Program-made: the position numbers and the translations under genes
The notes under the pieces: generated by a model
Told to the model about the DNA's origin: nothing
What the model saw: only the letters and a program-made list of their open reading frames with translations
Database searches by the model: none
From: Escherichia coli
GTDB taxonomy: Bacteria > Pseudomonadota > Gammaproteobacteria > Enterobacterales > Enterobacteriaceae
Assembly (NCBI RefSeq): GCF_003334815.1
Contig: NZ_QOWO01000115.1
Direction: 5' to 3' (one strand)
Length of the DNA: 869 bases
Shown: positions 1 through 869 of the stretch, piece by piece
How the letters are laid out: each line of letters begins with the position of its first letter
Numbering within the stretch: position 1 is the stretch's first letter

Positions 1-76
1 CGCGGGGAAGTTCAGGCCGCTACGGCCTCTGCAACCGGCTTAGCGTGCTTTATTTTCCGTTTTCTGAGACGACCCC
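1..76. mobile_element. Terminal segment of a Tn3-family transposon (Tn5393-like or Tn21-like) inserted into the colicin gene; the body of the element lies beyond the left window edge
   Basis: Terminal inverted repeat at 39-76 plus 38 bp of GC-rich interior sequence at 1-38 (minus-strand read CCGGTTGCAGAGGCCGTAGCGGCCTGAACTTCCCCGCG). If the element is Tn5393-like, I recall its inverted repeats being about 81 bp, in which case all of 1-76 would be repeat; this cannot be confirmed from the window alone. Confidence 0.75.
39..76 (-). repeat. 38-bp terminal inverted repeat of a Tn3-family transposon (Tn21/Tn5393 subgroup); outer end at position 76, transposon interior towards position 1
   Basis: Reverse complement of 39-76 is GGGGTCGTCTCAGAAAACGGAAAATAAAGCACGCTAAG. 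The GGGG outer terminus, the internal ACGGAAAA motif and the inner TAAG are hallmark features of Tn3-family inverted repeats. The repeat begins exactly where the colicin-matching sequence stops, and composition shifts from AT-rich colicin sequence to GC-rich sequence at 1-38. Confidence 0.85.
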
Positions 77-869
77 TATGATGGTTTCTGTTTTAACAAA
101 AAGAGGACGCCAGTTCTCTGTCCGGACAGCCTTACCAAACTCAGTGATCCAGTCAGCAAGACTTGTAAATTTTCCTGCATATCCCAGTCCCCGACTGAAT
201 CTGTTCAGATTAGACGATATATCAGACAGCTTCACAGACTCAAGGGCTGCGGCAATCGCTGCACGATCTTTTGCATTAATTTTTTTGTTAATGTCAGCCC
301 GGTACTTTTCATACGTTTTTAATGCCTCTTCAACATTACGTATTTTCTTCCCTTTAGCCTGCCCGGCCATCTCTCTGGCTAACTGCTCAGCTTTTGCACC
401 ATATTTTTCTGAAACTGATTTCAGGAACTCTGTTGTGAAATTAATTGCGTCTTTCGTTGCCTTCAGTTCATCCTGTTTTCTTTTCTCTTCCGCTATCTTC
501 TGATTGATGCCGGAAAGCTGGTTACGGATATTCTCTTTTTCCTTCAACAGGGCATTAAGAGCGTCATTTGCATGCTTTTGCTCATTTGTTCTGGCACTGA
601 GGTTATTTCTCGCCGAATTTACCGCAGATTCAGCAGAGGTGATTTTATTTCTGGCATCAAGCAATCTTTGCCGTAACTTATCCCATTCAGCAACTTCAGC
701 ATTATAAATTTTCTTGTCACCTTCCACATCCTCTGTCACCACCGGATTCTGGTCATTCAGAATATTGCGTTTATAGTCCAGACCGGAATGGCTCAGAAGA
801 TAATTCAGGTTTGCACGGTTATCGATGACTGCGCTGGTTGTGATTTTTATCGTACCGGCAAATCTCGGA
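50..869 (-). CDS. cia: Colicin Ia-type pore-forming colicin, partial: N-terminus lies beyond the right window edge; 3' end truncated by transposon insertion at 76/77, so the last 8 codons (GVVSENGK) and the TAA stop (50-52) come from the transposon inverted repeat. Probably a non-functional (pseudogenised) colicin.
   Basis: The minus-strand frame is open from 868 to the stop at 50-52 (my translation of 743-868 gives PRFAGTIKITTSAVDINRANLNYLLSHSGLDYKRNILNDQNPV with no stop, continuing into the supplied ORF). The 'M' at 740-742 in the ORF track is a GTG valine codon. The translation (...VTEDVEGDKKIYNAEVAEWDKLRQRLLDARNKITSAESAVNSARNNLSART...KDAINFTTEFLKSVSEKYGAKAEQLAREMAGQAKGKKIRNVEEALKTYEKYRADINKK...NWRPLFVKTETII) matches my recollection of colicin Ia and differs from colicin Ib at the positions where I recall those two diverging. 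Canonical colicin Ia continues ...ETIIAGNAATALVALVFSILTG... to ...KFWGI; here the frame instead reads GVVSENGK then stops. Confidence 0.88.
   Translation of the reverse strand, partial: PRFAGTIKITTSAVIDNRANLNYLLSHSGLDYKRNILNDQNPVVTEDVEGDKKIYNAEVAEWDKLRQRLLDARNKITSAESAVNSARNNLSARTNEQKHANDALNALLKEKENIRNQLSGINQKIAEEKRKQDELKATKDAINFTTEFLKSVSEKYGAKAEQLAREMAGQAKGKKIRNVEEALKTYEKYRADINKKINAKDRAAIAAALESVKLSDISSNLNRFSRGLGYAGKFTSLADWITEFGKAVRTENWRPLFVKTETIIGVVSENGK

Follow-up and report, generated by a model that had tools for sequence, protein, structure and literature searches.

One of the described systems closest to the locus studied here is the intact cia-imm module of IncI1/IncI-gamma plasmids, as found in NZ_CP024481.1 (L001). 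In this module, imm, which encodes an immunity protein of 111 aa, is convergent with cia, and the stop codons of the two genes lie 21 nt apart; yagA is expected upstream of cia and imm downstream. The intact Cia protein has 626 residues. Within its channel domain, helix H7 ends at residue 575 and is followed by H8 (residues 580 to 594), H9 (597 to 612), and H10 (from 614), with H8 and H9 forming the membrane-inserting hydrophobic hairpin (PMC2585860). The second system that is relevant here is the Tn21 copy of R100/NR1 (NC_002134; annotated "TnAs3 family transposase"), a transposon with TATTA at both ends.

Here, these systems are compared with an 869-nt stretch of Escherichia coli DNA, referred to as the window, which makes up all of contig QOWO01000115.1 in draft assembly GCA_003334815.1 and which ends 76 nt inside a transposon. 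The cia part of the window (76/77-869, 793 nt) is 100% nucleotide-identical in at least 14 complete IncI-type plasmids, including NZ_CP024481.1, and the 264 encoded residues are identical to those of the Cia protein of that plasmid. In contrast to the intact module, however, cia ends here at codon 575 at the transposon end, and the cia 3' end and imm lie off the contig. In intact plasmids, the imm stop codon is found 177 nt past the position at which cia is broken in the window.

Structure of the transposon-colicin junction

Window positions 1 to 76 are identical (100%) to the right end of the R100 Tn21 (NC_002134 19655-19730). Positions 2 to 43 correspond to the final 13 codons and the stop codon of the R100 tnpA CDS (16731-19697), the tail being the only part of tnpA in the window, and position 43 is equivalent to R100 19697, the end of this CDS. 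The tnpA stop codon, TAG at positions 41 to 43, falls within the terminal inverted repeat. At its outer end, the repeat in the window runs ...GACGACCCC, and when read from the outside in it is GGGGTCGTCTCAGAAAACGGAAAATAAAGCACGCTAAG, with the GGGG start that is typical of the Tn21 subgroup. Since the left (mer) inverted repeat of the R100 Tn21 differs from the window repeat at three positions, the repeat in the window is specifically the one from the tnpA end. Two marks of the Tn21 subgroup are therefore found in the window, namely, a 38-bp repeat with GGGG and a tnpA gene that reads toward this repeat and ends inside it, and on these sequence features the transposon is assigned to the Tn3 family, Tn21 subgroup. 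The repeat also provides a stop codon on each strand: tnpA ends at its TAG on the plus strand, and the truncated colicin open reading frame ends at TAA (50-52) on the minus strand. Around 1440 PLSDB records match window positions 1 to 140 at an identity of at least 99%, essentially through the Tn21 end. Coordinates of all features are given in Table 1.

Table 1. Features of the 869-nt window
Feature	Position	Strand	Remarks
Tn21-subgroup transposon interior	1..38	+	100% identity to R100 Tn21 19655-19692
Last codons of tnpA, AGKFRPLRPLQPA	2-40	+	part of the segment identical to R100 Tn21
38-bp terminal inverted repeat, tnpA end (IRtnp)	39..76		38/38 versus right end of R100 Tn21
Left terminal 77-mer	1..77		terminal 76 nt of Tn21 and a single base of flanking DNA; read as a probable fork by analogy with the right end
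Truncated colicin ORF (RCR40621.1 / WP_114476226.1)	50..868	-	264 Cia residues plus the 8-residue tail GVVSENGK
Putative 5-bp target sequence TATGA (cia strand, TCATA)	77..81		inferred from Tn3-family 5-bp duplications
cia fragment, codons 312-575 (receptor-binding region plus channel helices H1-H7)	77..869	-	open on the 5' side, where the contig stops
Exact 77-nt overlap with the beginning of QOWO01000067.1	793..869		first difference at window position 792

The window splits between positions 76 and 77, and the junction is the outermost base of the inverted repeat. A join exactly at the terminal base of the repeat is a signature of transposition and not of a chance join. From its letters, the window is best described as the tnpA-end junction of a Tn21-subgroup transposon inserted in cia between codons 575 and 576, with TATGA as the target. 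A simple insertion would place a second copy of TATGA at the other end of the transposon. The possibility that the cia-Tn21 join is a chimeric contig produced by the assembler, with cia intact in the strain, was also weighed. In favor of this are the small size of the contig and the graph forks at its two ends, but the join lies at the exact terminal base of a 38-bp inverted repeat, for which the probability of a random chimera is negligible. Moreover, the two partners share a single base at the join, so that there is no repeat able to mislead a k=77 assembler, and the contig is recorded in two samples; an artefact of this kind is very improbable.

An earlier note on this DNA, made from the sequence alone, had placed the immunity gene just downstream of cia in the opposite orientation and the transposon directly past the cia breakpoint. 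The first statement agrees with the convergent arrangement in NZ_CP024481.1, and the second is confirmed by the Tn21 end in the window. Within the window, however, there is no cognate immunity gene convergent with and immediately downstream of cia: none of the nine open reading frames of at least 20 aa is an immunity gene, and none is homologous to WP_001080734.1 (colicin Ia Imm/Iia, 111 aa). The assembly breaks off after 76 nt of a repeated transposon end, and the lack of imm in the window therefore reflects a limit of the assembly and is not in itself biology.

The insertion site is new relative to the complete sequences searched. The junction in the window is spanned by no record in PLSDB or among 5,426 complete E. 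coli genomes, with either the full window or a 140-nt query, and an exact 27-nt junction pattern gave 0 matches in GTDB representative genomes and JGI metagenomes. A search of the literature returned nothing specific to this insertion or to this assembly.

Coding capacity of the truncated cia gene

The product of the truncated gene matches both PF11504 and PF01024 in Pfam, and it aligns with PDB 1CII over chain positions 290-554 (E-value, 7.5e-165), the alignment stopping at the break. Residues 576 to 626, the last 51 of intact Cia, are replaced by GVVSENGK and a stop codon, and both the 8 codons of this tail and the TAA stop come from the inverted repeat. The complete 10-helix channel domain is therefore not encoded, as the H7-H8 loop, the H8-H9 hairpin, and H10 are gone after residue 575. 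Since the hydrophobic hairpin is missing, the 583-aa product should not form pores, and we strongly infer a loss of channel activity. The suggestion in the earlier note that the truncation fits an inactive colicin is thus sound. Binding to Cir should be retained by the 583-residue product, but without an inner-membrane channel; the Ia locus would no longer be a weapon, and self-protection against it would no longer be needed.

Exact look-ups of the predicted proteins found neither the full 583-aa fusion, nor a 575-aa product stopping at the break, nor the 166-aa partial protein expected from a k=31 assembly on record. One could imagine that the truncated colicin has been retained as a Cir decoy on the producer and its kin, blunting colicin Ia and Ib without an immunity protein; its Cir-binding and translocation domains would be kept, no pore would form, and its expression might be driven by the native promoter of cia, located beyond the window. 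We consider such a role highly unlikely. The insertion was seen in one assembly only, which argues for a recent neutral accident and against a decoy. In practical terms, the annotation "colicin-like pore-forming protein, partial" denotes here a dead, transposon-truncated allele and is no sign that colicin Ia is produced.

A second colicin I locus in the same assembly

The right end of the contig led to a second colicin locus. Position 792 is where common cia and cib alleles depart from the window sequence, which they match at all later positions, and 792 plus 77 equals 869, the contig end. This arithmetic predicted a sister contig with the same 77-nt start and colicin Ib, and such a contig was then found in the same assembly (QOWO01000067.1, 7586 nt; L028 in our collection, referred to here as contig 67). 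Its 77-nt start is the reverse complement of the window end, and the two sequences diverge at the next base. On contig 67, colicin Ib is represented by its last 315 residues, up to the native C-terminus, followed by the Ib immunity protein (115 aa) and an IncI-type backbone. Besides cia::Tn21, the genome therefore has cib-imm(Ib) as a second colicin I locus. The Ib-type imm is the only immunity gene recovered from GCA_003334815.1, and its product has 25% identity to the Ia immunity protein. The Ia and Ib immunities are specific, and no protection from colicin Ia is expected of the Ib immunity protein. The working colicin I locus of the strain appears to be Ib, as seen for the C-terminal part of cib and imm(Ib) only.

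The two contig ends are interpretable as k-mer forks of a k=77 de Bruijn assembly, the assembler, its k, and its repeat-resolution rules being deduced from the 77-nt overlaps alone, and it is this reading that made the sister contig predictable and then recoverable. By analogy with the right end, the left end suggests that the genome contains the tnpA end of Tn21 in two or more contexts. Following the same k=77 logic, the other copy of the tnpA end would be flanked by T and then by a base other than A. A second context for this end means that recombination between Tn21 copies is possible.

The far end of contig 67 was inspected as well. It lies in the 3' end of an impB/umuC-like SOS-mutagenesis gene (L028 7510-7586), with no SNP relative to two Ia plasmids. 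This terminal 77-mer is shared with some other sequence of the genome and could mark where the backbone of a second plasmid resumes. The idea that the mer end of Tn21 abuts impB at this point found no support, as there is no common SNP there and the predicted chimeric open reading frame is absent from the homology-search clusters.

Forks of the kind seen at position 792 may not be peculiar to this assembly. A 336-aa N-terminal partial colicin ending just before window position 792 occurs in 27 blocks of the collection. This 336-aa partial protein, from the shared 5' region of cia and cib, is found on at least 24 contigs, and among the 10 longest listed none is from GCA_003334815.1. The data suggest that the Ser/Thr polymorphism near position 792 is a frequent assembly fork and that two colicin I alleles per sample are common. 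Separately, an IncK2/Z plasmid (NZ_CP027600.1, L027) carries at 1955-3698 a colicin Ib annotated as 424 aa, N-terminally shortened and overlapping a hypothetical open reading frame. This cib diverges sharply from cia near its 5' end and is probably frameshifted or rearranged.

Fate of the colicin Ia immunity gene

The earlier note proposed that the immunity gene had been either displaced by the transposon or deleted. The premises of this proposal hold and the either/or is logically safe, but the window does not decide between the two. We weakly favor the reading in which the arm carrying the cia 3' end and imm(Ia) has been lost or rearranged and is no longer in its conventional place, to which we would assign a rough probability of 0.55. 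Two routes to such a state are known. An adjacent deletion anchored at the inverted repeat, arising during intramolecular transposition of Tn21 as a member of the Tn3 family, could have removed the Ia arm, or recombination between two Tn21 copies could have done so.

The reading of loss or rearrangement draws on contig 67. All 12 imm(Ia) arms that were examined (L001, L025, and ten public contigs) share 77-mers with this contig, and the sharing begins at L028:1363 or 1439, upstream of imm by about 59 nt. An Ia arm in the conventional place would accordingly give a fork at L028:1363. At the cia/cib fork the assembler ended the two contigs, whereas contig 67 runs unbroken past L028:1363 for 6.2 kb up to 7586; by symmetry, this suggests that no second path joins there, an argument from the assembly graph that depends on the behavior of the assembler. 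In that case, the Ia arm would be deleted or connected to an unconventional partner.

The main alternative is simple displacement, in which a complete Tn21-type element of about 20 kb entered cia by replicative transposition and resolution of the usual kind. Past the other inverted repeat, flanked by TATGA, one would then find the remaining 3' part of cia and an intact imm(Ia) under its own promoter, and the cell would still be immune to colicin Ia. Simple insertion with 5-bp duplications is the default outcome for the Tn3 family, and the R100 copy shows matching repeats. Furthermore, imm is transcribed convergently and lies 177 nt from the breakpoint, so that its coding sequence and upstream region would be untouched. 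Immunity genes also commonly outlive colicin genes, with about one-third of the matching PLSDB records retaining imm and only some 41 nt of cia, and imm(Ia) may simply sit on another contig of the assembly. Against displacement stands the missing fork in contig 67, where every examined imm(Ia) arm would merge.

Displacement also predicts a reciprocal junction, which should read imm(Ia), cia 3' end, TATGA, and then GGGGGCACCTCAG... (the mer-end inverted repeat of Tn21, also given as GGGGGCACC...). A junction of this kind with its 5-bp duplication, which the earlier note had named as the finding that would indicate displacement and not loss, was sought in PLSDB and complete E. coli genomes and was not found: no record in either set covers at least 80% of a 400-nt query made of the cia 3' end, TATGA, and the mer end of Tn21. 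At the protein level, exact look-ups showed that the predicted remnant open reading frames of 65, 78, and 95 aa, in which the mer end is fused to the cia 3' end, are not on record, although such negatives weigh little because NCBI probably annotates the cia 3' remnant as a pseudogene without a protein product, and a remnant annotated in this way would escape protein look-ups. A homology search with the 78-aa chimeric remnant returned many cia 3' remnants at other breakpoints and none joined to the Tn21 inverted repeat. Weighing both sides, we regard simple displacement as a serious contender that falls somewhat short of an even chance.

Several public contigs resemble parts of the predicted reciprocal arm. 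A 52-aa partial protein beginning "IAGN..." is encoded on 17 public contigs whose first codon is the break codon, cia I575, and which also contain imm(Ia). Of the ten listed first (within L004-L023), five begin exactly with TCATA, the predicted target duplication, which may be a coincidence. These contigs were considered as candidates for the reciprocal arm and set aside as background; all five NCBI contigs with the 52-aa protein belong to other assemblies, and at neighboring codons contig starts of this kind are equally or more numerous.

Comparison with known colicin I modules and Tn21

In order to place the locus among related plasmids, a 1306-nt query comprising imm plus cia was compared with PLSDB, where it matched 1601 records. 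The full cia and imm module is present in 368 of these, while roughly a third contain the shared N-terminal and central colicin region only and represent colicin Ib plasmids. The class noted above, with imm and about 41 nt of cia only, likewise accounts for roughly a third and is mostly IncF. The orphan Ia immunity gene is thus widespread (for example, PLSDB matches H166-H183), mostly in IncF plasmids of human E. coli.

With respect to the transposon, the window and the R100/NR1 Tn21 are identical over the terminal 76 nt, which take in the 38-bp IRtnp and the last part of tnpA. Unlike the full R100 Tn21, the window contains 76 nt of the element and nothing of a mer module, integron, res/tnpR, or second inverted repeat, so that these 76 nt could belong to any Tn21 relative or fragment, and the insertion site also differs, being cia with TATGA here and TATTA in the case of R100. 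Inactivation of a colicin gene by a Tn21-type insertion is a new instance of a well-known event and ordinary biology. It matters little in itself, as insertions of resistance transposons at or close to the cia gene of IncI-type plasmids are routine, as is the decay of colicin and immunity genes.

The IncF plasmids with an orphan imm(Ia) are similar to the present locus in that they, too, reflect decay of the cia-imm module through rearrangement. They differ in what has survived, as these plasmids keep imm and have lost almost all of cia, whereas here most of cia is kept. Another parallel is provided by the IncF plasmid NZ_CP010187.1, which, like the window, holds a cia remnant without its 3' end; the remnant is an internal piece of the gene, and nothing in the rest of the record matches imm. 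In contrast to the window, the break in this plasmid lies 86 nt from the stop codon, the gene is cut at its 5' end too, and no Tn21 inverted repeat is present at the junction. Displacement and loss of the immunity gene both have precedents among these known modules, and neither outcome is unusual.
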